A stretch of DNA of 37,762 bases from Myxococcales bacterium (GTDB lineage Bacteria > Myxococcota > Myxococcia > Myxococcales > Anaeromyxobacteraceae): assembly GCA_021779335.1 (NCBI GenBank), contig JAJYAW010000001.1, positions 1-37,762 of the forward strand, in the 5' to 3' direction. Positions within the stretch are counted from its first letter, which is position 1, and every line of letters starts with the position of its first letter. Below the pieces are notes generated by a model. The model was not told the DNA's origin, did no database searches, and saw nothing but the letters and a program-made list of their open reading frames with translations. This document shows positions 1,312 to 17,577 of this stretch, in pieces. Position numbers and translations under genes: made by a program.

Positions 1312-1365
1312 CCTCCCCCGTTCAGGCCAGCCGCCCCCTTTCCCCGCCCGCCGGCTCCAACCGCC

Positions 1366-2532
1366 ATGGCCAAGACAGCGCTCATCCTCGGTGGCGGGTT
1401 CGCAGGGCTCGAGGCCGCCATCCACCTGCGTCAGGCGGGGCTCGACGTCACGCTGGTCTCCGACCGGCCCTTCCTCTTCATCTACCCGACGTCGATCTGG
1501 GTGGTGACCGGCGAGCGGGCCCTCGACCAGGTCACGCTCGACCTCGCCGACGCCGCCCAGCGCCACGGCTTCCGCTTCGTGGAGGGGGCCGTGGAGTCGA
1601 TCTCGGCGGCCCGCCGCTCGGCGGTGGTGGGCGGCCAGGAGCTGGCCGCCGACCACCTGGTGGTGGCCATGGGCGGCGACCGGCTCAAGCCCAAGGGAAA
1701 CGAGACGACCTTCACGCTCGGCGGCGCCCCCGAGAACGTCCAGCGGCTCCACGACGCGCTCGAGGCCCTCCTCGCCAAGGGCAGCGGGCGCATCGCCATG
1801 GGCTTCGGCGGCAACCCCAAGGACACCTCGACGGTGCGGGGCGGCCCGGTCTTCGAGGTCATGTTCAACGTCGACCACCTGCTGCGGCGCCGCGGCCTGC
1901 GCCAGGCCTTCGAGCTCACCTTCTTCGCCCCCATGCCGAGCCCCGGCGAGCGGATGGGCAAGCGGGCCGTCGGCGCCATCCAGGCGATGTTCGACCGGCT
2001 CGGGATCGGCCGGCGCTTCGGCAAGAAGATCGATCGGTTCGAGCCGGGCGGCGTGGTCTTCGAGGACCAGTCGCGGCTCGACGCCGACCTGGTGGTGTTC
2101 CTGCCGGCCGGCGAGGGCCACCCGGTCGTCAAGGGCTCGGACCTGCCGAGGAACGAGGCCGGCTTCGTCCAGGTCGACGCGGGGTGCGCCGTCCCGGGCT
2201 TCGCCGGCGTCTGGGCCATCGGCGACGCGGCGGCGCTGCAGGGGCCGGACTGGCGCGCCAAGCAGGGGCACGTGGCCGAGGTCATGGCCCGCGTGGTGGC
2301 GGCGAACGTGGCGGCGGAGGAGGCCGGCCGGCCGGAGCGGGAGAGCTACCTTCCCCACCTCGGCATCACCTGCCTCCTCGACATGGGGAACGGCGGCGCC
2401 TATATCCACCGCGACGACCGGAAGGAGCAGATGGTCCCGCTCCCGGTGGTGGGCCACTGGATGAAGAAGGCCTGGGGCGCCTACTACAAGGCCTCCAAGC
2501 GCAGGCAGGTCCCGCGCCTCCCCGGCATGTGA
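1366..2532 (+). CDS. FAD-dependent pyridine nucleotide-disulfide oxidoreductase, sulfide:quinone oxidoreductase (SQR)/NDH-2-like
   Basis: 388 aa. N-terminal dinucleotide fold ALILGGGFAGLEAA, C-terminal FAD motif GVWAIGDAA, and overall SQR-like length and pattern. Only two Cys are present, so the SQR subtype and activity are uncertain. Confidence 0.8.
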   Translation: MAKTALILGGGFAGLEAAIHLRQAGLDVTLVSDRPFLFIYPTSIWVVTGERALDQVTLDLADAAQRHGFRFVEGAVESISAARRSAVVGGQELAADHLVVAMGGDRLKPKGNETTFTLGGAPENVQRLHDALEALLAKGSGRIAMGFGGNPKDTSTVRGGPVFEVMFNVDHLLRRRGLRQAFELTFFAPMPSPGERMGKRAVGAIQAMFDRLGIGRRFGKKIDRFEPGGVVFEDQSRLDADLVVFLPAGEGHPVVKGSDLPRNEAGFVQVDAGCAVPGFAGVWAIGDAAALQGPDWRAKQGHVAEVMARVVAANVAAEEAGRPERESYLPHLGITCLLDMGNGGAYIHRDDRKEQMVPLPVVGHWMKKAWGAYYKASKRRQVPRLPGM

Positions 2533-2563
2533 GCGGCGCCGTCCGCGACCTGGAGACGCACCC

Positions 2564-3169
2564 ATGAAGCTGTGGCACGCCACCACCTGCCCCTACTGCC
2601 AGCGGGTCCGCATCGCCCTCGCCGAGAAGGGGCTCGCGGTGGAGGAGCGGCTCGTGGACCTGGCCGCCAAGCCCCCCGAGCTCCTGGCGCTCTACCCGGC
2701 CGGCGGCGTCCCCGTGCTGGAGGTGGACGGCGCGGCCATCCCCGAGTCGATCGTCATCCTCCAGTACCTGGAGGACCGCGCGCCGGCGCCGGCCATCCTC
2801 CCGCCGGATCCGCTCGGCCGCGCTCGGGCGCGGCTCCTCCACGACCGGATCACCGCGGCCCTCGGCCCGCACGTGCCGAAGCTCCTGCGGGGCGCCCCCG
2901 AGGAGCAGGAGCGCGCCCGCCAGGCCATCCTGGGGGCGCTCGGCGCGCTCGAGCGCGAGGCTCCCGAGGCGGGCTTCCTGGCCGGCCCCTTCTCCATCGC
3001 CGACATCGCCCTGGCCCCCTTCGTGGCCAAGCTGCCGGCGGCGCTCCGCCCGGCCGCCCTCGGCCTCCCCCGCCTGGCGCGCTGGGAGGCGCTGGTCCTG
3101 TCCCGCCCCAGCGTGGCCGCGGTGGTGGCGGCGGCGCCGCCCGCCGGCGCGAGCCCGCTCCCCCGATGA
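2564..3169 (+). CDS. Glutathione S-transferase family protein
   Basis: 201 aa. Thioredoxin-like GST N-domain (MKLWHATTCPYCQRVRIALAEKGL...GGVPVLEVDG..IPESIVILQYLEDR) followed by a helical C-domain. GGAG lies 8 nt upstream of the ATG. Confidence 0.85.
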   Translation: MKLWHATTCPYCQRVRIALAEKGLAVEERLVDLAAKPPELLALYPAGGVPVLEVDGAAIPESIVILQYLEDRAPAPAILPPDPLGRARARLLHDRITAALGPHVPKLLRGAPEEQERARQAILGALGALEREAPEAGFLAGPFSIADIALAPFVAKLPAALRPAALGLPRLARWEALVLSRPSVAAVVAAAPPAGASPLPR

Positions 3170-3176
3170 GGTCTCG

Positions 3177-3566
3177 ATGAGCAAGGTGCTGCTGGTCGTC
3201 GTGCTGCTGGTGGTCGGCCTGATGGTCGGGATGCAGCTGCTGGTCCGCTCCCGGGCCCGCGCCATGCGCGGCCAGCAGGTGCCGGAGCTCCCCGGGCCGC
3301 TCGGCCGGCAGCTCGCCGGCGCGCCCCGCTCGCTCCTCTACTTCTTCAGCCCCTCGTGCGGCGCGTGCAAGCCGCTCACCCCGCGCTTCACGGCGCTGCA
3401 GCGCGGCAACCCCGCCGTGCACCTGGTCGACGTGTCCCAGGACCTGGGCGTGGCCCGCAGCTTCAAGGTCATGGGGACGCCCAGCGTCGTGGAGATCGCC
3501 GACGGCCGGATCGTGGGGTACCACGTGGGCGGGGTGCCGCCCGACGTGCTGGCGCGCTTCGCCTGA
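3177..3566 (+). CDS. Membrane-anchored thioredoxin-fold thiol:disulfide oxidoreductase (CGAC active site)
   Basis: 129 aa. N-terminal signal-anchor MSKVLLVVVLLVVGLMVGMQLLV, active site FFSPSCGACKPL, and cis-Pro region GTPSVV. Starts 7 nt after the GST stop. Confidence 0.85.
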   Translation: MSKVLLVVVLLVVGLMVGMQLLVRSRARAMRGQQVPELPGPLGRQLAGAPRSLLYFFSPSCGACKPLTPRFTALQRGNPAVHLVDVSQDLGVARSFKVMGTPSVVEIADGRIVGYHVGGVPPDVLARFA

Positions 3567-3567
3567 G

Positions 3568-3588
3568 CCGCGGCGGGCCGCGCCGCGG
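3568..3588. terminator. GC-rich hairpin between convergent thioredoxin and LysR genes (possible bidirectional terminator)
   Basis: CCGCGGCG (3568-3575) pairs with CGCCGCGG (3581-3588) around a 5-nt loop. There is no U-tract. Confidence 0.3.
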
Positions 3589-3603
3589 GGCCCGGGCCGT
3601 CCC

Positions 3604-4533
3604 TCAGCCGCACGCCCGCTCTGCGAAGCCGGGCTCCGACGGCCGGAGCCGCGCCAGCACCTTCGCCACGAAGGCGGCGGCGGGGCTCCGCTCGACGAGC
3701 CCGGCGCCGACGACCAGCGTCCGCCGACGGGCGTGCGTGAACCCCGGGACGCGGAGCTCCACCAGCCGCCCCGCGGCGACGTGCTCCCGCACCAGATCGG
3801 TCGAGATGAAGGCGACGCCGTCGCCGCGCAGCACCGCCTCCACGATGATGTGGAGGTCGTCGAACACCACCACCCGGTTGAAGTCGTCGATCTGTCGCCT
3901 CACCTCGACGAGATTCTTCTGCAAGAGGGTGCGCGAGCAGCAGCCTTCGCTGCGGGTGTAGAGCGTGCCGGAGACGAGCCGGTCGAGCGCGACCTCGGGC
4001 CCGCCCAGGGCCAGCGCGGGTGAGGCGGCGAAGACCATCTCGTCCCCGAGGAGGCTGACCGTCTCGAACTCCGAGAGGTCGAAGCACTCGCAGTGCTCCA
4101 CCACCGCCAGCTCATAGCGACCACCCTTGAGCCCGGCCACGACCTCCTCCGGCGTCTCCAGCACGAACTTCAAGTCGCCGATCTCGGCCTGGGAGAGCAT
4201 GAACTCGCGCAGGATCTCGGGCAGGTGCACCACGCCGAAGGTCGGCGTGCAGACGAAGGAGAGGCCCCGCTTCCGGTCCATGAGGTGGAGCTTCGCCAGC
4301 AAATCCCGCTCGATCTCGAGGATCTTGTGGGCCTGCTCCAGCACCACGCTCCCGGCTGGGGTGAGCGTGAGGAGCGGGCCGGATCGATCGAGCAGCGGCT
4401 GGCCGTACTGATCCTCCATGAACTTGATGCGACGAGATGCCGCAGAGGCCGTGACCGCCAGCGCCTCGGATGCCTTGGTGATGTTGCCGGACCTCGCCAC
4501 CTCCACCAGCGTCTTCAGGTAAATGGACTCCAT
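3604..4533 (-). CDS. LysR family transcriptional regulator
   Basis: 309 aa. N-terminal wHTH (LKTLVEVARSGNITKASEALAVTASAASRRIKFMEDQYGQPLLDR) plus a LysR substrate-binding domain. Divergent from the rhodanese/cytochrome operon. Confidence 0.92.
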   Translation of the reverse strand: MESIYLKTLVEVARSGNITKASEALAVTASAASRRIKFMEDQYGQPLLDRSGPLLTLTPAGSVVLEQAHKILEIERDLLAKLHLMDRKRGLSFVCTPTFGVVHLPEILREFMLSQAEIGDLKFVLETPEEVVAGLKGGRYELAVVEHCECFDLSEFETVSLLGDEMVFAASPALALGGPEVALDRLVSGTLYTRSEGCCSRTLLQKNLVEVRRQIDDFNRVVVFDDLHIIVEAVLRGDGVAFISTDLVREHVAAGRLVELRVPGFTHARRRTLVVGAGLVERSPAAAFVAKVLARLRPSEPGFAERACG

Positions 4534-4687: not shown

Positions 4688-6583
4688 ATGTCTGGATTTG
4701 ATGTGCAGCCGCGGCGCGCCCTGGCGCTCGGCGTCCCTGTGGCGATGCTGCTCACCGGCCTCGTCTCGGCGGGCTGCTCCAAGAGCTACGAAGACCCGAG
4801 CGCCGAGCTCTATGCCGGCGACGCGACCGCGATCACGCTGGTCGAGCCGGCGGCGGTGCGGGCCTGGGTCGACGCGGGCGGCAAGACGGAGGCGGGCCAG
4901 CGGGTCGTCATCCTCGACTGCGTCCCCAACCCGGCCGGCGTCCTGCCCTACTCGGACACGGAGAGCTGGTTCGCCGGCGACAAGATCAAGATCCTGGCCA
5001 ACATGGACAAGATGTACGGGGGGAAGTTGAGTCCCCAGTACAAGGGCTTCTCCGGGATGGGGGACGCCATGTACGGCCACATCCCGGGCGCCATCCCGAA
5101 CGTCTCGCACGAGGGCTACGAGGTCACGCCCCGGAGCGAGGGGCCGATCCTGGCCGACCACGAGGTGGGCACGGGCGCGCTCATCGACCAGATGCTCCAG
5201 AAGCAGGGCATCACCAGGAGCGACGTCCTCGTCTTCACGACCTCCCGCTACGACTACCCGGGCTTCTGCCCCGCGCGCCTGTTCTGGACCATGCGCTACT
5301 GGGGCTTCCCTCGCGGCCAGCTCAAGGTCCTGAACGGCGGCAACAAGGCCTACGCCATGGCGGGCAACCCGCTGCAGAAGGGCATCACGCTGCCGCCGAT
5401 GAGCCGGTCCACCATGAGCGTCACCGACCTGCCCAAGAGGTTCCTCTCGGAGCGGATCGGCCTGGGGGAGCTCATCGCCCTCGTGGACGGCGGCCGCACC
5501 ACGCTGCCCGCCGGTGACGCCAACAAGGTGGTGGTCCTCGACACCCGCCAGCCGCCGGCCGCCTACTACTTCAAGGACGCCGACGCCGACCAGGTCCCCG
5601 ACATCTTCAAGGCCGCCGGCTACGCCTACGACCCCGCCACCAAGCTCTTCAACGGTGGGACGCTGACCCTCAGCGAGGTCCTCTTCGGCGCCGCCAACCT
5701 GGGCATCCCGTTCGACCCGGTCAACAATCCACCCATCAACCTGACCGCGACCCCGGCCAGCACCTACCTGGCCATGCACGCGCTGGCGGGCGCGCCGCTG
5801 GCCATCCCTCTCGGCGCCAAGGAGGCGGCCTTCGAGGGCATCGTCCGCGGCGCCAAGGTGACCAAGACGCCTGCCTGGAACATCACGGTGCCGGCGCTGT
5901 CGCGCGCCGACGGCGGCTACAAGACGAGGGAGGAGCTGCTCCCCATCTTCGCGGCCGCCGGCATCGACGGCACGAAGCCCGTGGTCGTCTACTGCAACTC
6001 GGGCGCCCTGGCGGCGATCTACTACTACGTCCTCAAGGAGATTTGCGGGATCCCGGACGTGCGCCTGTACGACGGCTCATGGCAGGAGTGGGGCAACCTG
6101 GCTGCCTACCAGCCTGTCGACACGACGTACGTGATGAACGACGACTACACGGTCTACCCGAAGTACCCCGCGTCTGCGCCGTCGGTGGTGTTCTTCGCCG
6201 GCCAGAACCACTACCTGACCTGGGACCCGGTGGGGCTGGCGTTCAAGGACAGCCAGACCGGCGCCCTGGTCGGGTCGGACAAGGTCGCAGCCGGTGGCTC
6301 GCTGGCCGGTAACGGCACCTGGGACACCGTCACCCGCTCGGAGTTCGTCATGTTCCGCCCCATGGCGTCGCTGCAGGGGGCCGCGCTGGACCTGAACGGC
6401 GCCGCCAACTACCGCAACAAGACCTACAACAGCGCGGTCGACTGGCCGGCCATCCAGACCACGCCCGGCTACCAGGGCCCCGCCACCAAGATCCACGACG
6501 AGGACGCCGCCTACGGCGGCTCCACCGCGAGCGCTCCAGCCGGAGCCCCCACGCCCTTCGTGCCGAAGGGCGGCGGCTGCTGA
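4688..6583 (+). CDS. Multi-domain rhodanese (sulfurtransferase) lipoprotein, ExtH-like, with C-terminal ...PKGGGC tail
   Basis: 631 aa. Signal peptide with lipobox-compatible LVSAGC. Rhodanese active-site loop VVVYCNSGALAA plus an upstream inactive-type rhodanese region. Low-complexity Ala/Pro/Gly linker ends in a terminal Cys (GGC TGC TGA at 6575-6583). Strong SD GAGGAGGAGGGG precedes the ATG. Confidence 0.88.
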   Translation: MSGFDVQPRRALALGVPVAMLLTGLVSAGCSKSYEDPSAELYAGDATAITLVEPAAVRAWVDAGGKTEAGQRVVILDCVPNPAGVLPYSDTESWFAGDKIKILANMDKMYGGKLSPQYKGFSGMGDAMYGHIPGAIPNVSHEGYEVTPRSEGPILADHEVGTGALIDQMLQKQGITRSDVLVFTTSRYDYPGFCPARLFWTMRYWGFPRGQLKVLNGGNKAYAMAGNPLQKGITLPPMSRSTMSVTDLPKRFLSERIGLGELIALVDGGRTTLPAGDANKVVVLDTRQPPAAYYFKDADADQVPDIFKAAGYAYDPATKLFNGGTLTLSEVLFGAANLGIPFDPVNNPPINLTATPASTYLAMHALAGAPLAIPLGAKEAAFEGIVRGAKVTKTPAWNITVPALSRADGGYKTREELLPIFAAAGIDGTKPVVVYCNSGALAAIYYYVLKEICGIPDVRLYDGSWQEWGNLAAYQPVDTTYVMNDDYTVYPKYPASAPSVVFFAGQNHYLTWDPVGLAFKDSQTGALVGSDKVAAGGSLAGNGTWDTVTRSEFVMFRPMASLQGAALDLNGAANYRNKTYNSAVDWPAIQTTPGYQGPATKIHDEDAAYGGSTASAPAGAPTPFVPKGGGC

Positions 6584-6647: not shown

Positions 6648-7823
6648 ATGACAGTCTTCAAGGCAGCCGTCGCCGCCCTCACGGGCATGTTCCTCTCCGC
6701 GGGGCCGGCCGTCGCCGGACCCGCCCTCGAGTTCGGGCCGGAGCAGCAGGGCACGCTCCAGCTCGACTACAAGGGCCAGTTCCAGCTGCGCCTGCGCAAC
6801 ACCGGCGCCGGGCCCGATGGGGCGGGCAGCGCCACGGAGTTCGGCTTCCGCCGCGACCGCGTCGACCTCATCGGAGCCTGGGGCGAGCACCTCGGGCTCT
6901 ACGTCCAGACCGAATTCCTCGAGGACAACAACGTCTCGCCGCTGTCCGTCGGCGACGGGGAGGCCTCCTCGTTCCAGCTGATCGACGCGGCCATGCGCTT
7001 CAAGCTGAACGACCAGCTCAACGTCTGGGTCGGCAAGTTCAAGTACGGCTTCACGCGCGAGAACCTGGAGGCGTGCGAGGCCCCGCTGACCCTGGATCGC
7101 TCGCTCTTCATCCGGGCGCCCTACGTCGCGACCCGCGACCAGGGTGTGTCGGTGTGGGGCAACGTCCTCGGCGGCCTCATCCAGTACCGGCTGGATGCCA
7201 TGAACGGGCGCAACGACGCGACGTCCTCTCCGCGGTCGCAGCTCCGCTACTCGGCGCGCGCCCACCTGTCGCTCCTCGAGCCGGAGAGCGGGTACGGCTA
7301 CAAGGGGACCTACCTCGGCCAGAAGCGGGTGCTGACGCTCGGCGCAGCCTATCAGTACGAGGCCGGGATCGCCTTCGCGGACACGGTCGGCAAGACCGGC
7401 AGCGTAGACTACGACGCGTGGACCGTGGATGCCTTCCTGGAGTACCCGGTCGCTGGCGTCGGCACGTTCACGGCCTCGGGCGCCTACGTGAGGTACGAGC
7501 TCGGCAAGGCGTACCAGGGGGCTGCGCCGGACGCCGGCACCATCGGCCTCAACGGCGAGAAGAACGGCTGGTACGCCAAGGCGGCCTACCTGCTGCCCGG
7601 CGTGCCGGTGCAGGTCTTCGGCCGTGCCGAGCAGTGGTCCTTCGCCCAGCTCGACGGCGTCTTCGACCAGCAGGTCGACTGGTACGGCGGCGGCTTCAAC
7701 TACTACGCCCGGGGGCAGGACCTGAAGCTCACCGCCGAGTATTCGGTGGCGTCCTTCGGCAAGGCGGGCGCCTCCACCAAGGATGTCGACACCCTCATCG
7801 TCCAGCTGCAGCTGGTCTTCTGA
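6648..7823 (+). CDS. Outer-membrane beta-barrel porin (phosphate-selective porin O/P-like; ExtI-like position)
   Basis: 391 aa. Signal peptide MTVFKAAVAALTGMFLSAGPAVA. Amphipathic beta-strand pattern throughout, with C-terminal ...LIVQLQLVF ending in an aromatic residue. AAGGAG SD is present. Confidence 0.85.
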   Translation: MTVFKAAVAALTGMFLSAGPAVAGPALEFGPEQQGTLQLDYKGQFQLRLRNTGAGPDGAGSATEFGFRRDRVDLIGAWGEHLGLYVQTEFLEDNNVSPLSVGDGEASSFQLIDAAMRFKLNDQLNVWVGKFKYGFTRENLEACEAPLTLDRSLFIRAPYVATRDQGVSVWGNVLGGLIQYRLDAMNGRNDATSSPRSQLRYSARAHLSLLEPESGYGYKGTYLGQKRVLTLGAAYQYEAGIAFADTVGKTGSVDYDAWTVDAFLEYPVAGVGTFTASGAYVRYELGKAYQGAAPDAGTIGLNGEKNGWYAKAAYLLPGVPVQVFGRAEQWSFAQLDGVFDQQVDWYGGGFNYYARGQDLKLTAEYSVASFGKAGASTKDVDTLIVQLQLVF

Positions 7824-7849: not shown

Positions 7850-8080
7850 ATGACGCTCAAGCTACTCGCCGCCGCCACGCTGTTGTCACTCTCGAGCCTG
7901 GCCTCCGCGCAGGACGCCGCGGTCGAGGGGAAGGTCACCGCGGTCGAAGGCAACAAGGTCACCGTGGAGGTGGCGCCCGGAGACGCAGCCAAGCTCAAGA
8001 TCGGGGACGAGATCACCGTCAAGGCGAAGGCGCCGAAGCAGGCGCCGAAGAAGAACAGCGCCGCGTTGCAGGGCTGCTGA
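7850..8080 (+). CDS. Small secreted periplasmic protein (76 aa) ending ...ALQGC; ExtJ-like position
   Basis: ATG at 7850 is preceded by AAGGGAGAA. Signal peptide MTLKLLAAATLLSLSSLASA, then a short beta-rich core (EGKVTAVEGNKVTVEVAPGD..IGDEITVKA), a Lys-rich tail and a terminal Gly-Cys. In the track it is hidden inside the 7073..8080 ORF. G/C-rich third positions. Confidence 0.7.
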   Translation: MTLKLLAAATLLSLSSLASAQDAAVEGKVTAVEGNKVTVEVAPGDAAKLKIGDEITVKAKAPKQAPKKNSAALQGC

Positions 8081-8140: not shown

Positions 8141-9118
8141 ATGACTGACCCACGAGCTCCCCTGCCACTCGCCCTCCTCTCGCTCGCCGTGGCCTGTGTC
8201 GCGACCACGGCGCTGGCCGCGCCGGCCGGCATCGGCCGGGACGGGATGATCGCCTCCCGAAAGGGCAAGGCCCGCAGCATCGCAGAGCTGGCCGCGATGT
8301 ACGACTCCAGCTCGTGCGTGGAGTGCCACCAGGAGGCCCACGACCAGTGGGCGGCCTCGCCTCACGCCAGGCCTATCTTCGGCACCGGGCGAACCGCGGC
8401 GACCTTCCGAACGGCCGTGCTGAACGGCCTCATGTCGTGGCCGTACTCGGGGGTGAAGAGTCCCAAGGACGTCAAGGTCGAGCACCTCATGGGGTGCGCC
8501 AAGTGCCACCTGCCACAGCTTGCGGACGCCACCGACGCCGTGGCCGCCGAGGTGGCCCAGAGCATCTTCAGCTGGGCGGATGCCGTGCAGGGCGGCGACG
8601 AGAGGAGGCGGGCCACCGAGGAGAAGAAGCTGCTCAGCCTTGGAATCACCTGCCTGGTCTGCCACAACCGGAACGCCATCGTGCACAAGTGGACCGACGG
8701 CTACCCGCAGGCCGGCGTCGTGTACGGCTCCAAGGCAGGCGCCCACGATGCGCCGGGCTTCCCGAAGATGGCGGTGAGCCCGATCATGCAGGAGTCCATC
8801 CTCTGCGGCCAGTGCCACGGCCTCGGACCCAACCTCGAGCTGGACAACCCGACGCAGTGCGGCACGGGGTACGGCAGCTATCTGTGGGCCTACCGCGCCG
8901 AAGGCGGCCGTGAGACCTGCCAGGATTGCCACATGCGGAAGAGCGGCCTGGGGCACAAGATCCTCAGCTACAGCGACCCGGCCATGATCAAGGCGGCGGT
9001 CGACTTCGAGGCCGACGCGCAGGGGATGTACTGGCGAGACGGCACGCGCGTCAGCGCACGCGCCGTGGTGCGGGTGGCGATGACCAACCGCTCCGGCCAC
9101 AGCATCCCCGATGGTTGA
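8141..9118 (+). CDS. Periplasmic pentaheme c-type cytochrome (ExtK-like), as conventionally terminated at TGA 9116-9118
   Basis: Signal peptide plus five CxxCH motifs: CVECH, CAKCH, CLVCH, CGQCH, CQDCH. The ORF stops inside a conserved-looking block ...NRSGHSIPDG*. See the next two features for the read-through hypothesis. Confidence 0.9.
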   Translation: MTDPRAPLPLALLSLAVACVATTALAAPAGIGRDGMIASRKGKARSIAELAAMYDSSSCVECHQEAHDQWAASPHARPIFGTGRTAATFRTAVLNGLMSWPYSGVKSPKDVKVEHLMGCAKCHLPQLADATDAVAAEVAQSIFSWADAVQGGDERRRATEEKKLLSLGITCLVCHNRNAIVHKWTDGYPQAGVVYGSKAGAHDAPGFPKMAVSPIMQESILCGQCHGLGPNLELDNPTQCGTGYGSYLWAYRAEGGRETCQDCHMRKSGLGHKILSYSDPAMIKAAVDFEADAQGMYWRDGTRVSARAVVRVAMTNRSGHSIPDG

Positions 9119-9169
9119 CCCACCCCCAACCGACTGGTCCTGTCGGTAAGCGCAAAGACGAAGGGTGGG
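9116..9169 (+). other. In-frame UGA followed by a SECIS-like stem-loop (candidate selenocysteine recoding signal)
   Basis: Upper stem ACCGAC (9129-9134) pairs with GTCGGT (9142-9147). The 7-nt apical loop TGGTCCT (9135-9141) begins 16 nt after the UGA. Lower stem CCCACCC (9119-9125) pairs with GGGTGGG (9163-9169) and starts right after the UGA. Confidence 0.45.
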
Positions 9170-9484
9170 AAGGAGCTGTACAACACCGAGAAGATCTACA
9201 TGCCGGTGCCGCAGCAGTTCGCGCGCGGGGATCGAATGGGGAGGGGCCCCTACGAGAAGAGCGGTATCATCGAGGACAACGGACTGCCGCCGAACCGGCG
9301 CGTCGAGGAGCGGTTCGAGATCCCGTTCCCCATGGAGGAGGTGGAGGGGACGCGCCGCCCGACCGAGTACGACATGGACGTCGACGTGAAGCTCTGGTAC
9401 CTGCCCTTCGGGACGATGGAGTCCTCCCCGTTCCTCTGGCGTGAGTTCAAGAGGACGGTCAGCGTGAGCCGGGGCGGAAAGTAG
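9119..9484 (+). CDS. Heme-less C-terminal continuation of the pentaheme cytochrome, same frame as 8141..9118 (full product 8141..9484 if the TGA is decoded)
   Basis: Same frame as the upstream ORF. G/C-rich third positions start immediately after the TGA (PTPNRLVLSVSAKTKGGKELYNTEKIYMPV...). No SD or plausible start occurs before the track's ATG at 9200, and that ATG also lacks an SD. Ends at TAG 9482-9484. Confidence 0.6.
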   Translation, partial: PTPNRLVLSVSAKTKGGKELYNTEKIYMPVPQQFARGDRMGRGPYEKSGIIEDNGLPPNRRVEERFEIPFPMEEVEGTRRPTEYDMDVDVKLWYLPFGTMESSPFLWREFKRTVSVSRGGK

Positions 9485-9593: not shown

Positions 9594-11441
9594 ATGTGGT
9601 GTGCTGGACTCCCGCCCGCCCGCCCTGGCCCGGGGCTGCTGCTCGCCGCCGCGTTGCTGGCGGGCTGCGGAACCGCGCCGGCCGGGCTGACGTGCCGCGG
9701 CTGCCACGCCGGGCTGGAGCCGGCCTCCGCCACGCACGGCGACTGTCTCTCCTGCCATGGTGGCGACGGCCGGGCTCGCCAGAAGGACCGGTCGCACCGC
9801 GGCATGTTCGGCGGCAGGAACCCCTCGGCGCCGGCCGCCTGGGAGAAGACCTGCGGCGCCTGCCACCCGCTCCAGCTGCAGCGGCTGCGCGGCGCGCTCA
9901 TGACCACCAACGCCGGCATGATCCGGAACATCCAGGCGACCTGGGACGGCGAGGACGGACGGGCCTACGCGGCCCAGCCGGCCGCGACCTTCGATGCCAG
10001 CGGGAGGCCGTGGGCGCTGGCGGGCGCCACCGAGCTGCCGGGCCTATCCGGTGAGCTGTACCGGAAGTACTGTTCGCTCTGCCATGTCGGGCTGTCCTCC
10101 GACGAGGTGTACGCGGGGAGCCACGCCGCCGGGTGCGCGGCCTGTCACTTTCCGTTCAACGACACCGCCACCTATCAGGGCGGCGACGCGGCCGTCCGAG
10201 GCCGCTGGCCGCTCTCGGCCTCGCACGCCATGGCCCGCCTCCCCGACAACCGGGCGTGTCTGGCGTGTCACAACCGCAGCGGCCGGATCGCACTCTCTTA
10301 CCAGGGGCGCTACGACGGCAACAACGGGCTGGTGCCCACCCGCGACGGCGAGCCAGGGCCCAGGATCATCTCGGGCGCCCGCGACGCGACCGCCATCGCG
10401 CCGGACATCCACTTCGAGAAGGGGATGGACTGCATCGACTGCCACACCTCCCGTGACGTCATGGGCGACGGCTACGCATACCAGAACCTCGATCGGCAGG
10501 TGGAGGTGGCGTGCGAGGACTGCCACGGGAGCCCCACGCGGCGGCCGAGGACGGCGGCCATCACTCGCGAGAACGACGAGGCGGTGCGCGAGTCGGCCAG
10601 CTACCCCACGCCGGCGAGATCAGGCCTGGAGATGGTCCTCACCTCCAAGGGGCGGAAGTACTCGAACGCTTGGATGGAGTCCGGGACGGTAGTCGTCCAG
10701 TCGAAGCGCACCGGCCAGCGGCACGAGAGCAAGGTCATCACCGGGACCCCGGAGCACGCCGTCGCCGGCCACGAGCGGATGGAGTGCCACGCCTGCCACT
10801 CGCGCACCGTGGTCCAGTGTTATGGCTGCCACACGACCTACGACCGCTCCAGGGTGAGCCGCGACTTCATCCGGGGCGCCGACACGCCGGGCGAGTTCAG
10901 CGAGACCGAGGACTACCGGACCCTTTACCCATTCCCCCTGGCGCTCAACCAGCGCGGGCGCATCTCGGCCGTGACCCCCGGCTGCCAGACCTTCCTCACC
11001 GAGCTCGGCGCCGACGGGAGGCCGGTGCGAGAGGAGGAAGTCGCCACCTTCAAGGGCAAGCGCCAGCTTCGCTTCGCGCCCTTCTTCTCGCACAACACCG
11101 GGCGCAGGGCGATCGGCTGCAGCGAGTGTCACGCCAACCCGGCCTTTCTGGGCTTCGGGCAGCACGTGGTCGAGGGAGACAGCCTCGCGCCTACCCTGCT
11201 GTGCGAGAAGTCGGCCGGGAAGCCGCTGGACGGCTTCCTCACACTGGACCACGGCCGGGTCCGCGCTTTCTCGGCCATCACGCGGCAAGGCTCTCGGCCG
11301 CTGGAGGCCGGCGAGATCAAGCGGGTCTGGGCGGTCAACCAGTGCCTGGGCTGCCACGACGACGCCAAGGACCCCATCTTCAGGAAGAAGCTCGACTACG
11401 GGCGCCTGGCGCGTTGCCTGGGAGCGACCCGTGCGCCCTGA
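9594..11441 (+). CDS. Dodecaheme c-type cytochrome lipoprotein
   Basis: 615 aa with canonical lipobox LLAGC. Twelve CxxCH motifs: CRGCH, CLSCH, CGACH, CSLCH, CAACH, CLACH, CIDCH, CEDCH, CHACH, CYGCH, CSECH, CLGCH. SD GGGAGGGAGG is present. Confidence 0.92.
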   Translation: MWCAGLPPARPGPGLLLAAALLAGCGTAPAGLTCRGCHAGLEPASATHGDCLSCHGGDGRARQKDRSHRGMFGGRNPSAPAAWEKTCGACHPLQLQRLRGALMTTNAGMIRNIQATWDGEDGRAYAAQPAATFDASGRPWALAGATELPGLSGELYRKYCSLCHVGLSSDEVYAGSHAAGCAACHFPFNDTATYQGGDAAVRGRWPLSASHAMARLPDNRACLACHNRSGRIALSYQGRYDGNNGLVPTRDGEPGPRIISGARDATAIAPDIHFEKGMDCIDCHTSRDVMGDGYAYQNLDRQVEVACEDCHGSPTRRPRTAAITRENDEAVRESASYPTPARSGLEMVLTSKGRKYSNAWMESGTVVVQSKRTGQRHESKVITGTPEHAVAGHERMECHACHSRTVVQCYGCHTTYDRSRVSRDFIRGADTPGEFSETEDYRTLYPFPLALNQRGRISAVTPGCQTFLTELGADGRPVREEEVATFKGKRQLRFAPFFSHNTGRRAIGCSECHANPAFLGFGQHVVEGDSLAPTLLCEKSAGKPLDGFLTLDHGRVRAFSAITRQGSRPLEAGEIKRVWAVNQCLGCHDDAKDPIFRKKLDYGRLARCLGATRAP

Positions 11442-12711
11442 CTCGGCCGGCGCGGGCGGCTCACGAAGCGGCGGGCGGCTCCTCGCCTGGCTCGTGTCGA
11501 TGGGCCTCGCCCTGCTCCCGCCGCGGGCGGACGCGGCCGGGGCGTGCACCACCTGCCACGCGAGGCAGGTGCGAGGTGCACACGCCACCATCGACTGCGG
11601 GGCGTGCCACCGCGGCCCCCGTGATCTCGGTCAGGTCTCGGCGGCCCCCGCCGCCCGGGGCTGCACCGGGTGCCACCCCGGCGCCGCCGCCATCTTCCTG
11701 GGACCCATGGCGCACCGCACGCCCGAGCGCGCCTTCGCCGACGCCGCCTTCGCGCACCGTGACAGTCGCTTCTTCGAGAAGAGCTGCACTGGCTGTCACG
11801 TGAAGGACTGCTTCGACTGCCACGGCCCGGACGGCCACGCCATCGAACGCCCGGGGAGCGAGGGCTGCCACACCTGCCACCGCGGTTACTTCGTCGGCGC
11901 CGACTACCTTGGCCGAGCCCCCCGAGAAGACAACCTGCGCTACCAGCGCGGGCCGTCCAGGGACGGAGAGCGCTACTTGAAGATGCGCCCGGACGTCCAC
12001 GCCGAGGCCGGCCTGGCGTGCGGCGCGTGCCACTCCATGGCCAGCCTGGCGGCTGGACGGCGCACCGCCAAGACCTGCACCGACTGCCATCGGCCGAGCC
12101 CAGCGGTGCTGGAGCACCGCATCGGCGGCCACCTCGAGGCGCTGGAGTGCTGGGCGTGCCACTCGGCCTGGGCTGCCCAGGAGTATGGGACCTTCTTCGT
12201 CCGCGTTGGAGGCAGCCCGGTAGCCGAACACTTCACCGTGAAGCGGGAGCCCGGCGCCGAGTACCTCCGCAGCGCCTACCTGCGGCGGCAGGACGCGCCG
12301 CCGCTCGGCCGCGACGTGGCCGGCAAGGTGAGCCCCGTCCGGCCACAGTTCATCGCCTACACGAGCGACCTTCGCAGGTCCGGCGGCGAGGAGAACGTGC
12401 TCCTCGTCGCGCAGTGGAAGGCCTTCTTCCCCCACACCGTCCGACGTGGCACGGTGCCGTGCGAAGGTTGTCACGAGGCCCCGCGCCGCTTCCTGGTCGA
12501 GCCCGAGGGGGCTCGCATCTACCTGCCCGCAGAGGACGGCCTGGGGCTGCCGTCCTTCTGGAGCCAGCGGGGGCAGACGCTGATCAATGGGCGCTTCCTC
12601 GCGCCGGAGGAGGTGGCGCGCCTCGGAGCGAAGAGCCCGGCCTACCGCAGGGGTACCATCGAGAAATGGCAGAAGCTCGTCCGGTCCGTCGAAGACTCCT
12701 CCAGGCGCTGA
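11431..12711 (+). CDS. Decaheme c-type cytochrome (secreted)
   Basis: 426 aa. GTG start with GGAG 6 nt upstream, overlapping the previous gene by 11 nt. Ten CxxCH motifs: CTTCH, CGACH, CTGCH x2, CFDCH, CHTCH, CGACH, CTDCH, CWACH, CEGCH. Confidence 0.9.
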   Translation: MRPDSAGAGGSRSGGRLLAWLVSMGLALLPPRADAAGACTTCHARQVRGAHATIDCGACHRGPRDLGQVSAAPAARGCTGCHPGAAAIFLGPMAHRTPERAFADAAFAHRDSRFFEKSCTGCHVKDCFDCHGPDGHAIERPGSEGCHTCHRGYFVGADYLGRAPREDNLRYQRGPSRDGERYLKMRPDVHAEAGLACGACHSMASLAAGRRTAKTCTDCHRPSPAVLEHRIGGHLEALECWACHSAWAAQEYGTFFVRVGGSPVAEHFTVKREPGAEYLRSAYLRRQDAPPLGRDVAGKVSPVRPQFIAYTSDLRRSGGEENVLLVAQWKAFFPHTVRRGTVPCEGCHEAPRRFLVEPEGARIYLPAEDGLGLPSFWSQRGQTLINGRFLAPEEVARLGAKSPAYRRGTIEKWQKLVRSVEDSSRR

Positions 12712-13055
12712 CCCTGGCCGCCGTGGCGGTGCCGCTCTGGCGCTACCTGGCGCCGGGACGGTCCCGGGCCCGCAGGGTCCTGCGCGTGCCCCGGGCGGAG
12801 ATCCCTCCGGAGGGGGCGCTCGTCTTCCGCGAGGCGCGCGTGGCGGTCATGCGCCGCGACGGCGCTGTCTTCGCCCTGGACCTCGCCTGCACGCACCTCG
12901 GGTGCACCGTCAACGTGACCTCGCGGCAGCTCGTCTGCCCGTGCCACGGGAGCACCTTCGCCCTCGACGGCACGCCGCTGACCGGCCCGGCCACGCGGCC
13001 GCTGGGGCGGCTCGAGGTGAGGGACGCGGACGCACACGTGGAGGTCCTGCTGTGA
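12666..13055 (+). CDS. Rieske [2Fe-2S] protein with twin-arginine signal
   Basis: 129 aa taken from the ATG at 12666 inside track ORF 12018..13055. N-terminus MAEARPVRRRLLQALTLAAVAV is Tat-like. Cluster-binding boxes CTHLGC and CPCHGS are present. Start position is less certain than the call. Confidence 0.85.
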   Translation: MAEARPVRRRLLQALTLAAVAVPLWRYLAPGRSRARRVLRVPRAEIPPEGALVFREARVAVMRRDGAVFALDLACTHLGCTVNVTSRQLVCPCHGSTFALDGTPLTGPATRPLGRLEVRDADAHVEVLL

Positions 13056-13696
13056 GTCAGCCAAACGACTCCGGCATGGTCCGCGGCTTCCTCGGCCACC
13101 TCTTCCCGCGCGTGGTCCTCGCCAGCAACCTCCGGCTCACCTACACGTTCTGCCTGGGCGGCCTGGCGTTCACGGCCTTCGTCCTGCTGCTCGGCTCGGG
13201 CATGCTGCTCCTCTTCGACTATCGCCCCTCGCCCGAGGGCGCCTACGCCTCGATCCTCTTCCTGGAGGGTAGCGTGCCGGGAGGGGCGTACCTGCGCCGG
13301 CTCCACCGGCTGTCCTCGCACGCCCTGCTGGCCTTCACCTTCCTGCACACGCTGCGGGTGGTGTTCACCGGCGCATTCCGCCCCCCCCGGGAGCTCAACT
13401 GGGTGATCGGGTTCGGTCTGCTCTGCATGGGCGTCTTCGGGGCGTACACTGGATACCTCCTCCCGATGGACCAGCTCGCCCTCTGGGCCACCCGGACCGG
13501 TACGGAGTTGCTGGCCACGGTGCCGGGCGGTGATCTGCTCCGGCAGGTGCTGGTCCCGGACGAGGTCGGCGGTCCGAGATCGCTGCAGCGGTTCTACGCC
13601 CTCCACATCGCGGTCGCCCCGCTCTCCATCCTGGTGCTGTCCATGCTCCACTTCTTCCGGATCCGCCGCGACAAGGGGGCGCTGCCGTACCTATGA
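13052..13696 (+). CDS. Cytochrome b6-type cytochrome b, N-terminal four-helix subunit
   Basis: GTG at 13052 overlaps the Rieske stop (GTGA); an alternative ATG lies at 13076. Aligns block by block with my memory of cytochrome b6: TFCLGG, DYRP, RRLHRLSSHALLAFTFLHTLRVVFTGAFRPPRELNW, GYLLPMDQLALWA, RFYALHIAVAPLSILVLSMLHFFRIRRDKG. His pairs are spaced 14 and 15 residues apart. Confidence 0.9.
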   Translation: MSQPNDSGMVRGFLGHLFPRVVLASNLRLTYTFCLGGLAFTAFVLLLGSGMLLLFDYRPSPEGAYASILFLEGSVPGGAYLRRLHRLSSHALLAFTFLHTLRVVFTGAFRPPRELNWVIGFGLLCMGVFGAYTGYLLPMDQLALWATRTGTELLATVPGGDLLRQVLVPDEVGGPRSLQRFYALHIAVAPLSILVLSMLHFFRIRRDKGALPYL

Positions 13697-14133
13697 GCAC
13701 GCCGGACCGTGGCGGCGACGACCTGGCGGGGCGGGTGCCGAGTGCGCCACGCTTCTTCGGCCTCATCAAGCGGACCTTCGCGGCGGGGGCCGCCACCTTG
13801 CTGCTGCTGGCCTTCGTGGTGCCGGCGCCGCTGCAGGGCCCGGCCGATCCGGGCCGGGTCCCCAACCCGGTGACGGCGGCCTGGTTCCTCCTCTGGACCC
13901 AGGAGCTCATGAGCTACTCGAAGGAGCTCATCTACCTCCTGCTGCTGCTCGCCGCCGCCCTCCTCTTCCTGCCCTGGCTGCCCGGGACCCGGCCGGCCGA
14001 CCGCGCCAGGTGGTTCCCCCGCGGTCAGCGTCCGGCCACCCTGCTGACGCTCGCCGCCTTCCTCGGCGTCGTCGGGCTCACCATCGTCGCGGGGTTCTTC
14101 CGGGGGCAGAATTGGGCCTTCTTCGCTCCCTGA
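13693..14133 (+). CDS. Cytochrome b C-terminal subunit (subunit IV/PetD-like)
   Basis: 146 aa. ATGA overlap with the cytochrome b stop. Three hydrophobic helices. NPVTAAWFLLW lies where PetD has the PEWY region. Confidence 0.8.
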   Translation: MSTPDRGGDDLAGRVPSAPRFFGLIKRTFAAGAATLLLLAFVVPAPLQGPADPGRVPNPVTAAWFLLWTQELMSYSKELIYLLLLLAAALLFLPWLPGTRPADRARWFPRGQRPATLLTLAAFLGVVGLTIVAGFFRGQNWAFFAP

Positions 14134-14909
14134 CCGCGCTCCTGGCGCTGCTGTCTCCGCTCCGGGCCCTGCCCGGCGGCGCCTGCATGGAGTGCCACCC
14201 CGTTCACCACGAGGCGTCCGCAGCCTGCACCGGATGCCACCGCGGCGATCCACGCACCCGGCGGCTGGAGCTCGCGCATCGCGACCTGATCGCTGGGCGC
14301 TTCGCGCACTTCGCGTTGCCGGGCAGCCTGGTGGTGGCCCGGGGCCAGCAGGTCCTCGAGCGGGCGGGCTGCCGCCGGTGTCACGTGACCGGCGGGCGCG
14401 GGAATGGCTTGGCGACCGACCTCGACCAGCTGCTTCAAGGCGCCACGCCGGCCGAGACGATGGGCGCCCTCCAGCAGCCTGCGCTCTTCATGCCCCGGTT
14501 CGCCCTGACGGAGCCGGCCACCGTCGAGCTGGTGAACGCGCTCTACGCGGGGTCGGCCGGGGCTCCGAGGAGGACGGGAGAGACGCCCGTGGTGGTCCAC
14601 TTCGAGCAGGCCGCCCCGCCCGAGAGCGCCTTCGAGACGCACTGCGGCGGCTGCCACCGGATGCTCTCCAGGATGCAGGGCGGCCTGGGCCGCGGCGCCA
14701 CCGGCCCCAATCTCACCGGGCTCCTGGGCGAGTTCTACCCGGGCACCTACAAGGACAGGGAGCGCTGGACGCCGGCCAGCTTGAGGAGGTGGGTGATGAA
14801 CCCCCGAGACACCCGGCCCCTGGCGACGATGCCTCCCCGGTCGCTGCCGGACCAGGAGCTGGAGCGGATCCTGGCGGCGTTCGAGGCCGGAGGAGGCACG
14901 GCCAGGTGA
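14112..14909 (+). CDS. Tetraheme c-type cytochrome of the Rieske/cyt b module
   Basis: C-terminal part of track ORF 13530..14909. Four CxxCH motifs: CMECH, CTGCH, CRRCH, CGGCH. The last two sit in class-I-like domains with distal Met-Pro. A TTG start at 14112 (GGGGG 6 nt upstream) gives signal peptide MGLLRSLTALLALLSPLRA. The start is uncertain. Confidence 0.75.
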   Translation: MGLLRSLTALLALLSPLRALPGGACMECHPVHHEASAACTGCHRGDPRTRRLELAHRDLIAGRFAHFALPGSLVVARGQQVLERAGCRRCHVTGGRGNGLATDLDQLLQGATPAETMGALQQPALFMPRFALTEPATVELVNALYAGSAGAPRRTGETPVVVHFEQAAPPESAFETHCGGCHRMLSRMQGGLGRGATGPNLTGLLGEFYPGTYKDRERWTPASLRRWVMNPRDTRPLATMPPRSLPDQELERILAAFEAGGGTAR

Positions 14910-14932: not shown

Positions 14933-15442
14933 CTACGGTGCGGTCGGGAAGGACCCCGTCGTCCCCTCGGCGATCGCCCTGAGCGCCGCCGCCGTGGCGG
15001 GCACGGTGCGCCACCCCATCATCCCCCACTTCATGCTGAAGGCTGGGTAGTCGAGGATTCGGAGCAAGCTCAGTGCCTTGGTCGATTCGTGCCCGGAGTT
15101 GCAGTAGAGAATGATCTCCCTTTCCCTGGAGAGCTTCGCCAGGCTCCGCGGTTCGGCGATCTCCCGTACCGGGATGCTGATGGCCCCCGGGAGGTGCCAG
15201 AGTTCGAACTCCTTCTCGGAGCGGACGTCGACCAGGACGAAGTCACTCTTGCCGGACTGGAGGCGGCCCCGGACCTCGGTCGGTGCCAGCAGGAAGTTGT
15301 TCTCCGGGGTGCTGTCCAGGAAGTGGGCCGCGGCCCGCTGGATGACCTCGGCCTCCCCCGGCGAGAGGGCGCTGGCCTGGCCAGCGGGGGCCAGGAGGGC
15401 CAGGAAGGTCAGCGTGAGGACCGCGGCTCTGCCGTGGGGCAT
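14933..15442 (-). CDS. Secreted single-domain rhodanese (sulfurtransferase)
   Basis: 169 aa from the ATG at 15442, with AAGGAG SD; the track ORF extends further to 15589. Signal peptide MPHGRAAVLTLTFLALLAPAGQASA. Active-site loop ILYCNSGHES. Confidence 0.85.
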   Translation of the reverse strand: MPHGRAAVLTLTFLALLAPAGQASALSPGEAEVIQRAAAHFLDSTPENNFLLAPTEVRGRLQSGKSDFVLVDVRSEKEFELWHLPGAISIPVREIAEPRSLAKLSREREIILYCNSGHESTKALSLLRILDYPAFSMKWGMMGWRTVPATAAALRAIAEGTTGSFPTAP

Positions 15443-15515
15443 GTGGGCTGCTCCTTGGGATGCTGGGGAGGGCGATTCGCGCCTGCGCCACCAGCCTCCG
15501 CGATGCGCCCCCGGA

Positions 15516-15549
15516 AGCCATTGACCGCTCGCAACGGGGAGCCGATTGC
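15516..15549 (+). repeat. Copy A of a ~34-nt intergenic element (AGCC ATTGACCGCTCGCAACG GGGAGCCG ATTGC)
   Basis: Read directly and aligned by eye to five other copies. The ATTGA core begins 77 nt upstream of the rhodanese start (15442, minus strand). Confidence 0.65.
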
Positions 15550-15598
15550 GTCGGACCACCGCGCGACCGAGCCGCCGACGGAGCAGCACCTGGCGGGA

Positions 15599-15618
15599 CC
15601 GAAGACCTGGATCTTCGG
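15599..15618 (-). terminator. Hairpin 20 nt downstream of arsC (possible terminator)
   Basis: CCGAAGA (15599-15605) pairs with TCTTCGG (15612-15618) around a 6-nt loop. No U-tract. Confidence 0.35.
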
Positions 15619-15637
15619 CATGGTGCCCTCCGTGGCC

Positions 15638-16090
15638 TCAGCGCCCGAAGACGACCGCCAGCCGCCGCCTGAGCTCGTCGCGCACCTCCCGGAACGACTG
15701 GAGCTGCGCCACCTCGTCGGCGCCGCGGCCGGCCGGATCCGGCAGCCCCCAGTGGAGGCGCCGGGCCCGGCCCAGGAACACCGGGCACTCCTCCTCGGCG
15801 CACAGGGTGATGACCACGTCCACGCCCTCGGGTGAAATGGTCTCCACGCCCTTGGAGGAGTGCCCGCGGAGGTCGATGCCGAGCTCGTCGAGCGCCTGGA
15901 TGGCAAGCGGGCTGACCCTGGAGGGCCTCGAGCCCGCCGAGGAGACGGTCACGCCGGCGGGCGCCAGCGCCCGGGCGAGCCCCTCGGCCATCTGGCTGCG
16001 CGCCGAGTTGGCGACGCAGAGGAAGAGGAGGTGCCTGGGCGCCAGCCGCCTGAGCTCCTCGGCCTCGGACCGCCAGGGCTCCCCGCTCAC
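15638..16090 (-). CDS. arsC: Arsenate reductase, LMW-PTPase (thioredoxin-coupled) family
   Basis: 150 aa with P-loop [16 protein letters not shown] (CX5R-S). GTG start overlaps the acr3 stop (GTGA). Sits in an ars operon context. Confidence 0.88.
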
Positions 16091-17208: not shown

Positions 17209-17217
17209 GGTGGGCTC

Positions 17218-17577
17218 CTACAGGCTCGCCACGAGCGCCCTCAGGCGGCGCAGGGCGTGCGGTTCGACGCAGTAGCAGACGCGCGGCCCATCGATGTCGC
17301 CGCGGATGAGGCCGGCCTCCTTGAGCACCTTCAGGTGCTGGGAGACGGTGGACTGGGCCAGCGGCAGCTCGTCGACGATGTCGCCGCAGACGCAGGCCTC
17401 GCGGCGGACGAGCAGCCGCAGGATCTGGACCCGGGCGGGGTGGCCCACGGCCTTGGTGAGCGCGGCCAGCTCCTCGTCCGCGGCGGGCCCCTCGACCGGG
17501 CGCAGGTCGGGGCCGGCGTGGCTGGGGTCGGTGGGCTGGCAGGTGGCCTTCCTGACGGACCTGAGGGCGCTCGGCAT
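17218..17577 (-). CDS. arsR: ArsR/SmtB family metalloregulator
   Basis: 119 aa. HTH region [45 protein letters not shown] carries the CVC metalloid-binding motif. Confidence 0.92.

Follow-up and report, generated by a model that had tools for sequence, protein, structure and literature searches.

The closest described relatives of the gene treated here are the multiheme c-type cytochromes of the MccSep (ExtKL) family. The gene occupies positions 8141-9484 of a 37,762-nt stretch of Myxococcales DNA (Anaeromyxobacteraceae; assembly GCA_021779335.1, contig JAJYAW010000001.1, positions 1 to 37,762), referred to below as the window. The selenoprotein status of the family was first predicted in 2007 (PMC1914089), and the family is included in a 2026 review of prokaryotic selenoproteomes (PMC13188914). 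In Geobacter sulfurreducens, MccSep, the product of GSU2937-2936, occurs in the periplasm as a homotetramer, with five hemes and 0.96 Se per subunit (Mihara et al., Sci Adv 2026; PMC13510729). Its tryptic peptide VEMTNHAGHSIPDGUPTPNR, where U is selenocysteine (Sec), was verified by mass spectrometry, and the mature protein begins at residue 26, with EKAGIGW. Heme 2 is ligated by H122 and C239, and activity needs U325, R83 and K372, the U325A and U325C variants being nearly inactive. The enzyme acts as a reductase on polysulfide and, with lower efficiency, on selenite; it is required for the respiration of elemental sulfur (S0). The crystal structures (PDB 9WT8, 9WT9 and 9WTA-C) show an immunoglobulin (Ig)-like downstream domain that brings the Sec loop into the active site at heme 2 (PMC13510729). 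The feature described here is therefore already known, as a curated NCBIfam family that has been characterised experimentally, by biochemistry, structure and genetics, since August 2026. The analysis of the window indicates that 8141-9484 is very probably a single gene, the Sec-type ortholog of MccSep, encoding a periplasmic pentaheme cytochrome c selenoprotein.

Reading frame and family of the gene

A preliminary description of the window had reported a pentaheme open reading frame (ORF) stopped by an in-frame TGA, with the same frame staying open to a TAG that ends at 9484, no start codon before 9200 and G/C-rich third positions resuming past the TGA. The sequence bears out each of these points. 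The first ORF starts at ATG 8141, yields a product of 325 residues in which five CxxCH motifs are present, and is ended by TGA 9116-9118 in the context ...NRSGHSIPDG[TGA]PTPNRLVLSVSAKTKGGKELY; past the TGA, the same frame holds 121 further sense codons, up to TAG 9482-9484. The earliest in-frame ATG, GTG or TTG in the ORF listing lies at 9200, and the 27 codons directly after the TGA are therefore unreachable by independent initiation. The G+C content of third codon positions (GC3) is 0.91 both upstream and downstream of the TGA, in a window of 73% G+C. Public gene calls divide the gene into a 325-residue 'ExtK' and a 94-residue 'ExtL'. The features of the coding region are the following, where numbers of G. 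sulfurreducens residues refer to its MccSep and their roles are taken from PMC13510729.

8141-9484, plus strand: full mccsep/extKL coding region, 447 residues including the predicted Sec326; NF040886 588 bits, PDB 9WT8 700 bits
8141-8218, plus strand: probable Sec-type signal peptide, about residues 1-26, with cleavage predicted after ...TTALA from the alignment with G. sulfurreducens MccSep
8315-8329, plus strand: heme 1 motif CVECH (C59-H63), columns invariant in the alignment of homologs
8390-8392, plus strand: R84, aligned with R83 (anion and substrate site)
8495-8509, plus strand: heme 2 motif CAKCH (C119-H123), the predicted active-site heme, with H123 aligned with the proximal ligand H122
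8651-8665, plus strand: heme 3 motif CLVCH (C171), columns invariant among homologs
8804-8818, plus strand: heme 4 motif CGQCH (C222), columns invariant among homologs
8858-8860, plus strand: C240, in an invariant column, aligned with C239 (distal Cys ligand of heme 2)
8918-8932, plus strand: heme 5 motif CQDCH (C260), columns invariant among homologs
9116-9118, plus strand: conserved UGA, probably read as selenocysteine, U326, aligned with U325, the Sec of 9WT8
9119-9481, plus strand: C-terminal domain under purifying selection, aligned with the domain that is Ig-like in the G. sulfurreducens structure
9257-9259, plus strand: K373, aligned with K372

The read-through product was built with a placeholder at the TGA, namely Cys for the family scans and X for the homolog and PDB searches. 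The NCBIfam model NF040886, 'multiheme c-type cytochrome (seleno)protein ExtKL', matched this product with 588.4 bits against a cut-off of 250, and the match joined product residues 17-442 to profile positions 6-422 of 423; the RefSeq name given in the preliminary description is thus a real one. In the PDB search, G. sulfurreducens MccSep (9WT8) aligned end to end with the product (700 bits, residues 7-447 against 7-450), and the position of the TGA fell on the Sec of the 9WT8 chain. The columns of the five CxxCH motifs (C59, C119, C171, C222 and C260) are invariant in 29 homologs, and R84, H123, C240, U326 and K373 are all kept at the aligned catalytic positions. From the homologous crystal structure, His123 and Cys240 would be the ligands of heme 2. 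At the N-terminus, a hydrophobic segment with an ...ALA-AP site stands, in the alignment, opposite the signal peptide that is removed from G. sulfurreducens MccSep, the window's APAGIGR taking the place of EKAGIGW, the mature N-terminus of the latter. The part past the TGA holds no heme motifs, as had been remarked, and corresponds to the Ig-like domain of the crystal structure. Continuity of the gene, its family membership and the conservation of the catalytic residues are in this way directly established.

The TGA itself is kept across the family. Among 1216 protein homologs, most of the close ones are pieces of about 320-330 residues ending in ...IPDG, full-length forms of about 450 residues are also present, and the contigs examined have the second piece annotated as an ORF of its own, of 82-94 residues. 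Some full-length homologs (P0086, P0087 and P0103) have Cys at the Sec column, within DGCPT, and more distant forms of the type GS-x-S or DS-x-S have G, A, T, V, I or L there; Trp occurs at this column in none of the aligned homologs. A scan with one genome per species returned at least 80 loci, and the motif was located in 79 of them, giving 80 sequences with the window. Among the matches listed, TGA stands at exactly the same column and is followed by PTPNR in all 79 motif-bearing loci, and the in-frame downstream length is 110-135 codons, apart from one locus that ran off its contig. These loci span Desulfuromonadales, Nitrospirota, Vicinamibacteria, Acidobacteriota, Gemmatimonadota, Krumholzibacteriia, Thermodesulfobacteriota and others, and the TGA is likewise present in the nearest relatives, of 91%, 84% and 76% protein identity. 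Three independent assemblies (ENA ERZ27236866, NCBI GCA_027417255.1, with the gene on contig DAIBOO010000147.1, and Logan SRR17201898) agree in every base of the gene and differ from one another by a few bases outside it.

Downstream of the TGA, the ratio of non-synonymous to synonymous substitution rates (dN/dS) is 0.19-0.44, similar to that upstream. Against the two closest usable relatives, it amounts to 0.21 and 0.33 downstream and to 0.13 and 0.21 upstream. These low downstream values argue that the part past the TGA is translated and under selection in the lineage of the window. The 27 codons between the TGA and 9200 are conserved in protein and in frame, although they contain no start. 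Elsewhere in the window, TGA is the stop of 20 of the 25 other gene calls checked, including extJ just upstream, so that the genetic code is standard and any recoding must be local.

Full-length ExtKL-like proteins of about 450 residues (P0011-P0085) form a sister group in which the Sec column is occupied by G, A, T, V, I or L. Its members, without Sec or Cys at this position, retain each of the five heme motifs as well as the Cys that ligates heme. In one Gemmatimonadota genome (locus L044, 2511 and 3913), a Sec-type copy is immediately preceded by an Ile-type one, which NCBI also names ExtKL.

The hairpin downstream of the UGA

The preliminary description had drawn a two-tier structure immediately past the UGA and had described it as resembling a selenocysteine insertion sequence (SECIS). 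Its two stems are placed as follows.

9129-9147, plus strand: predicted SECIS core hairpin, stem ACCGAC/GUCGGU (9129-9134 with 9142-9147) closing the 7-nt loop UGGUCCU (9135-9141)
9119-9125 with 9163-9169, plus strand: lower stem CCCACCC/GGGUGGG of the preliminary description, specific to the window and outside the conserved element

This two-tier fold is the exact minimum-free-energy structure of 9116-9175 (-21.5 kcal/mol), and the GGU of the loop lies, as had been claimed, at nt 21-23 when the U of UGA is counted as 1. Conservation was followed in a gap-free alignment of 36 sequences of the clade to which the window belongs, termed 'type A' (Desulfuromonadales-like, Vicinamibacteria and others). 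The upper stem, nt 14-19 with 27-32 (9129-9134 with 9142-9147), is paired in 36/36 of these sequences; five of its pairs are invariant and the sixth changes from A-U to G-U in two sequences. Because the stem varies so little, synonymous sites were examined in 38 sequences. Over codons +4 to +10 (AAC CGA CUG GUY CUG UCG GUA), the entropy of the third position is 0-0.69 bit, and it is 1.2-1.9 bit at the majority of the variable codons elsewhere. Arg +5 is encoded by CGA in 36 of the 38 sequences, and Arg +36 uses six codons, CGA being found in 2/38. Val +10 is GTA in 33 of the 38, and the window retains both CGA and GUA despite its GC3 of 0.91. These frozen synonymous sites indicate a constraint at the RNA level that lies precisely over the hairpin.

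The bacterial SECIS (bSECIS) consensus of Zhang and Gladyshev 2005, in the form summarised in the 2026 review (PMC13188914), consists of a loop of 3-9 nt, a stem of 4-16 bp and a distance of 16-37 nt from the UGA to the apical loop. It further includes a G within the first two nucleotides of the loop, as a rule with G or U next to it, and a minimum free energy of -7.5 kcal/mol or lower (PMC13188914). In the window, the loop measures 7 nt and the upper stem 6 bp, with G at loop position 2 followed by G (G21, G22 and U23 are invariant in 36/36). Its spacing of 16 nt (9119-9134) is at the lower limit, and the energy of 9129-9147 alone is -8.4 kcal/mol. The SECIS interpretation thus holds for the upper hairpin, a conserved core that fits the published model. 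The lower half of the two-tier structure does not share this conservation: it is paired in 41.7% of cells, codons +16 to +18 show no synonymous constraint, and the three closest relatives do not form it, with GAGGGG, GACGGC or GACGGA in place of GGGUGGG. It was rejected as a conserved element and is a local accident of Gly-Gly codons.

In Geobacter-like sequences, ACCGAC is found twice past the UGA (nt 3-8 and 14-19), each copy being complementary to GUCGGU (27-32). Owing to this repetition, a competing fold is the minimum-free-energy structure in many of them. It pairs nt 3-8 with 27-32 and 13-16 with 21-24, is 97.5% paired and is mutually exclusive with the 14-19/27-32 hairpin. In the window it yields -3.6 versus -8.4 kcal/mol, the window and five other sequences having at codon +1 CCC, not CCG, which disables the longer alternative hairpin. 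Variation within the competing fold is confined to positions 6 and 24, where it disrupts the pairing, and nothing disrupts the 14-19/27-32 hairpin. This pattern of variation, together with the energies in the window, therefore favours the upper hairpin as the functional core. The competing hairpin is the less likely functional fold, although it may operate in some members of the family. In Nitrospirota, Desulfobulbales and Thermodesulfobacteria, a different hairpin, GGUC...GACC with GG in the loop, is found a few nucleotides further downstream.

Selenocysteine and the rival explanations

Several observations weigh against reading UGA 9116-9118 as a selenocysteine codon. The fold energy is unremarkable, with z = -1.9 for 60 nt (9/200 shuffles as good) and -0.04 for 101 nt, and neither a SECIS nor another relevant Rfam family was found in the whole window at gathering thresholds or in 9000-9300 at E<=10; the support for the hairpin therefore rests on the comparison across genomes. 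The type-A stem hardly varies, so that its conservation is seen at synonymous sites and there is no compensatory change, and in the Geobacter-like consensus the competing fold is the more stable one (-10.8 versus -8.4 kcal/mol). No selA, selB, selC or selD is found among the ORFs of the 37.8-kb window, nor is there a tRNA-Sec in a tRNA scan of it. As to function, the attribution of polysulfide and selenite reductase activity depends on orthology at about 66% identity (tblastn matches, Geobacter loci).

The alternative that survives these considerations best is genuine termination at UGA 9116, as could happen in a lineage that lacks or has lost the Sec machinery; only a 325-residue pentaheme cytochrome would then be produced, the 94-residue ORF being untranslated or expressed from ATG 9200. 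The lack of sel genes and of tRNA-Sec within the window, the use of TGA as the usual stop there and the two ORFs annotated by public gene callers are all compatible with this view, which was also raised in the preliminary description, but it is very unlikely. The 27 start-less codons from the TGA to ATG 9200 are conserved in protein and frame, purifying selection acts downstream even among the closest relatives (dN/dS 0.21-0.33), and the synonymous sites of the hairpin are retained against a strong GC3 bias. The truncated enzyme would, moreover, lose both Sec and K373, and in G. sulfurreducens the U325A and U325C variants are nearly inactive (PMC13510729). Anaeromyxobacter is also a Sec-using genus, A. 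dehalogenans being reported to have 11 selenoproteins including SelD (PMC1794560); Sec competence of the Anaeromyxobacteraceae host is therefore plausible but unproven.

More improbable still is that near-cognate decoding inserts a standard amino acid (Trp, Cys or Arg) at the UGA, which would give a full-length protein without selenium. The continuity of the gene is by itself silent on the inserted residue; what speaks for selenocysteine instead is the conserved SECIS-type hairpin at the canonical distance and the pairing of Sec with Cys among the homologs, which is a signature of selenoproteins. In addition, the ortholog contains 0.96 Se per subunit and yields a Sec peptide by mass spectrometry, and its U325C variant is severely reduced in activity (PMC13510729). 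The possibility of a pseudogene (TGG or TGC to TGA) or of a sequencing or assembly error, the default explanation of an isolated in-frame stop and one also offered in the preliminary description, is refuted by the TGA at the same column in 79 independent genomes (among the matches listed) besides the window, the identical sequence in the ENA, NCBI and Logan assemblies, the intact downstream frame with its GC3 of 0.91 and low dN/dS, and the absence of Trp at the Sec column from the aligned homologs.

The selenocysteine reading, which the preliminary description had put forward as a candidate, is supported by the following: TGA or Cys within DG[U/C]PT in homologs, with Trp never at this column, and the Sec peptide of the ortholog (PMC13510729). 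Sec insertion in the organism of the window would proceed along the general bacterial scheme outlined next.

Bacteria deliver Sec through SelB-GTP-Sec-tRNA(Sec), which attaches to the hairpin at its apical loop as the ribosome reaches the UGA, and Sec is inserted where translation would otherwise terminate. By this scheme, UGA 9116-9118 would be decoded as selenocysteine during translation; the hairpin 9129-9147, which lies 10 nt past the UGA and carries GG close to the beginning of the 7-nt loop, would act as the bacterial SECIS and bring SelB-GTP-Sec-tRNA(Sec) to the ribosome. The 447-residue precursor would then be exported and loaded with five c-type hemes, and its C-terminal domain would set Sec326 next to heme 2, with His123 and Cys240 as the presumed ligands. 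By orthology to the G. sulfurreducens enzyme, the protein would reduce polysulfide and, less efficiently, selenite, which is consistent with the suggestion of sulfur or selenium chemistry made in the preliminary description. Sec may attack polysulfide or selenite to form a Sec-Se-(S/Se)-S-Cys intermediate, bridged to Cys240, which electrons from the heme chain would resolve. These electrons would presumably come from the cluster's remaining Ext cytochromes and from its Rieske/cytochrome b module.

The value of the observation is mainly one of annotation. Standard gene callers split this recoded gene in two, and its recognition restores a predicted 447-residue selenoenzyme. It also suggests that this Anaeromyxobacteraceae organism has the capacity to reduce polysulfide or elemental sulfur, and probably selenite as well. 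Biologically nothing in it is new, the family having been predicted in 2007, covered by a curated NCBIfam model and characterised in 2026; mildly new angles are offered only by the host, a member of Myxococcota, and by the cysteines conserved at the C-termini of ExtJ and ExtH, described below.

Gene neighbourhood, host and comparison with known systems

The mccsep/extKL gene sits within a complete extHIJKLMNOPQS cluster, in which ExtH and ExtP score below their cut-offs. The same gene arrangement has been described for Geobacter (PMC5877670). The other genes of the cluster are these.

4688-6583, plus strand: ExtH-like rhodanese lipoprotein, 631 residues, C-terminus PKGGGC; Pfam Rhodanese, NF040901 159 bits with a cut-off of 200
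6648-7823, plus strand: ExtI porin, NF040900 603 bits, above cut-off
7850-8080, plus strand: ExtJ, 76-residue secreted protein ending ...LQGC, NF040942 65 bits, above cut-off
9594-11441, plus strand: ExtM, 1009 bits, above cut-off
11431-12711, plus strand: ExtN, 593 bits, above cut-off
12666-13055, plus strand: Rieske protein (ExtO), Pfam only
13052-13696, plus strand: cytochrome b ExtP, 219 bits, below the cut-off of 290
13693-14133, plus strand: ExtQ, 180 bits, above cut-off
14187-14909, plus strand: ExtS, 301 bits, above cut-off

The ExtH-like protein, with 631 residues against the 430 positions of the ExtH profile, is longer and divergent and shows a single clear Pfam rhodanese domain. The NCBIfam models NF040967 (ExtN) and NF040968 (ExtO, 'iron-sulfur cluster-binding subunit') both match the same 426-residue multiheme protein with about 595 bits, and the Rieske protein at 12666-13055 matches neither of them; the name or the content of the ExtO model NF040968 looks inconsistent with the Geobacter literature. 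The order of the genes in the window is LysR-extH-I-J-KL-M..., whereas in a relative of 84% identity (L085, L086 9736-20972) extJ-extKL come first, followed by a divergent LysR gene and then by extH-extI-extM-N-O-P-Q-S.

Genes of sulfur and redox metabolism flank the cluster. Upstream of it (304-4533) are found a YeiH-like putative sulfate exporter, a flavoprotein resembling sulfide:quinone oxidoreductase (SQR), a GST/glutaredoxin-like protein, a thioredoxin and a divergent LysR gene. The SQR-like flavoprotein gave weak matches to models named 'N-terminal to SelD' and selenoprotein-subtype SQR. Directly after the cluster (14933-17577, minus strand) lies an operon of ArsR, Acr3 (SBF), an LMWPc arsenate-reductase-like protein and a secreted rhodanese. 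The LMWPc (15638-16090, minus strand) and rhodanese genes share one frame, separated by a TGA and 65 codons; the pair was considered as a second recoding site and rejected, as the stretch between them does not resemble coding sequence and the rhodanese possesses a start and a signal peptide of its own. Further on (17827-20806) come TauE, two proteins with an FmdE domain and a transporter of the CDF family, and then two CzcCBA-type RND systems. Besides ext, the genes of the window thus comprise ars, TauE, FmdE, CDF, the CzcCBA-type RND systems and a patatin.

A CzcA-type gene (20923-24024, minus strand) has 85-88% identity to Anaeromyxobacteraceae proteins and about 78% to Anaeromyxobacter species, which by itself points to Anaeromyxobacteraceae as the probable host family; the source is probably a metagenome-assembled genome. 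In species-representative genomes, the closest ExtKL among the matches listed have 66-70% identity and none exceeds 70%; the nearest named relatives, among these homologs and matches, belong to Desulfuromonadales and Geobacteraceae. This distribution suggests, without being proof of it, that the extKL gene of the window may have been acquired laterally. Myxococcota are absent from the main MccSep hosts named by Mihara et al. (PMC13510729).

Across 31 related loci, the last residue of the ORF that immediately precedes extKL, in the window ExtJ, is Cys, nearly always as ...GC, and in the lineage of the window ...PKGGGC is the C-terminus of the ExtH rhodanese. A flexible tail with a cysteine at its very end is reminiscent of the sulfur carrier SoxY. 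A tentative and rather doubtful proposal is that a complete MccSep/ext sulfur-respiration module was acquired laterally by Anaeromyxobacteraceae and that ExtJ (...GC) and ExtH (...GGGC) are its missing periplasmic carriers, which might pass polysulfide or persulfide sulfur, or selenium, to the Sec/heme-2 site by a SoxY-like 'swinging arm' of the C-terminal cysteine.

Compared with other known systems, the locus has little in common with TsdA and SoxAX beyond the use of a His/Cys-ligated heme for sulfur-sulfur chemistry (PMC13510729); these proteins are unrelated to MccSep in sequence, lack Sec and work physiologically in the oxidative direction. At the RNA level, the comparison is with the SECIS of E. 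coli fdhF and the bSECIS model. As in these, the hairpin lies directly downstream of the UGA and within the coding sequence; its apical loop is small, with G as the second nucleotide and G/U as the next (UGGUC in the window), and the spacing, 16 nt, lies inside the range of 16-37 nt. The loop of the E. coli fdhF SECIS is AGGUC, with GGU at nt 22-24, compared with UGGUC and nt 21-23 in the window. In contrast to the fdhF type, the stem of the window has 6 bp only, without a bulged U, no conserved lower helix was found, the hairpin matches no Rfam model and binding of SelB is a prediction.

By far the closest likeness is to MccSep of G. sulfurreducens PCA (GSU2937-GSU2936). The two proteins align collinearly over their full length, with five CxxCH motifs and the Cys ligand predicted for heme 2, the Sec position lies within an identical GHSIPDGUPTPNR, the active-site R and K are common to both, and the same extHIJKLMNOPQS neighbourhood surrounds the gene. 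The Geobacter, Geomonas and Citrifermentans loci examined carry the type-A hairpin ACCGAC-UGGUYCU-GUCGGU, as does the window. The differences are that the known host belongs to Desulfobacterota and that of the window to Anaeromyxobacteraceae (Myxococcota, 73% G+C); that position 5 of the loop is U in the Geobacter-type hairpin and C in the window; that codon +1 is CCG in Geobacter-like sequences and CCC in the window, where the alternative hairpin is lost; and that the neighbouring ExtH is longer in the window (631 residues) and scores below the ExtH cut-off.

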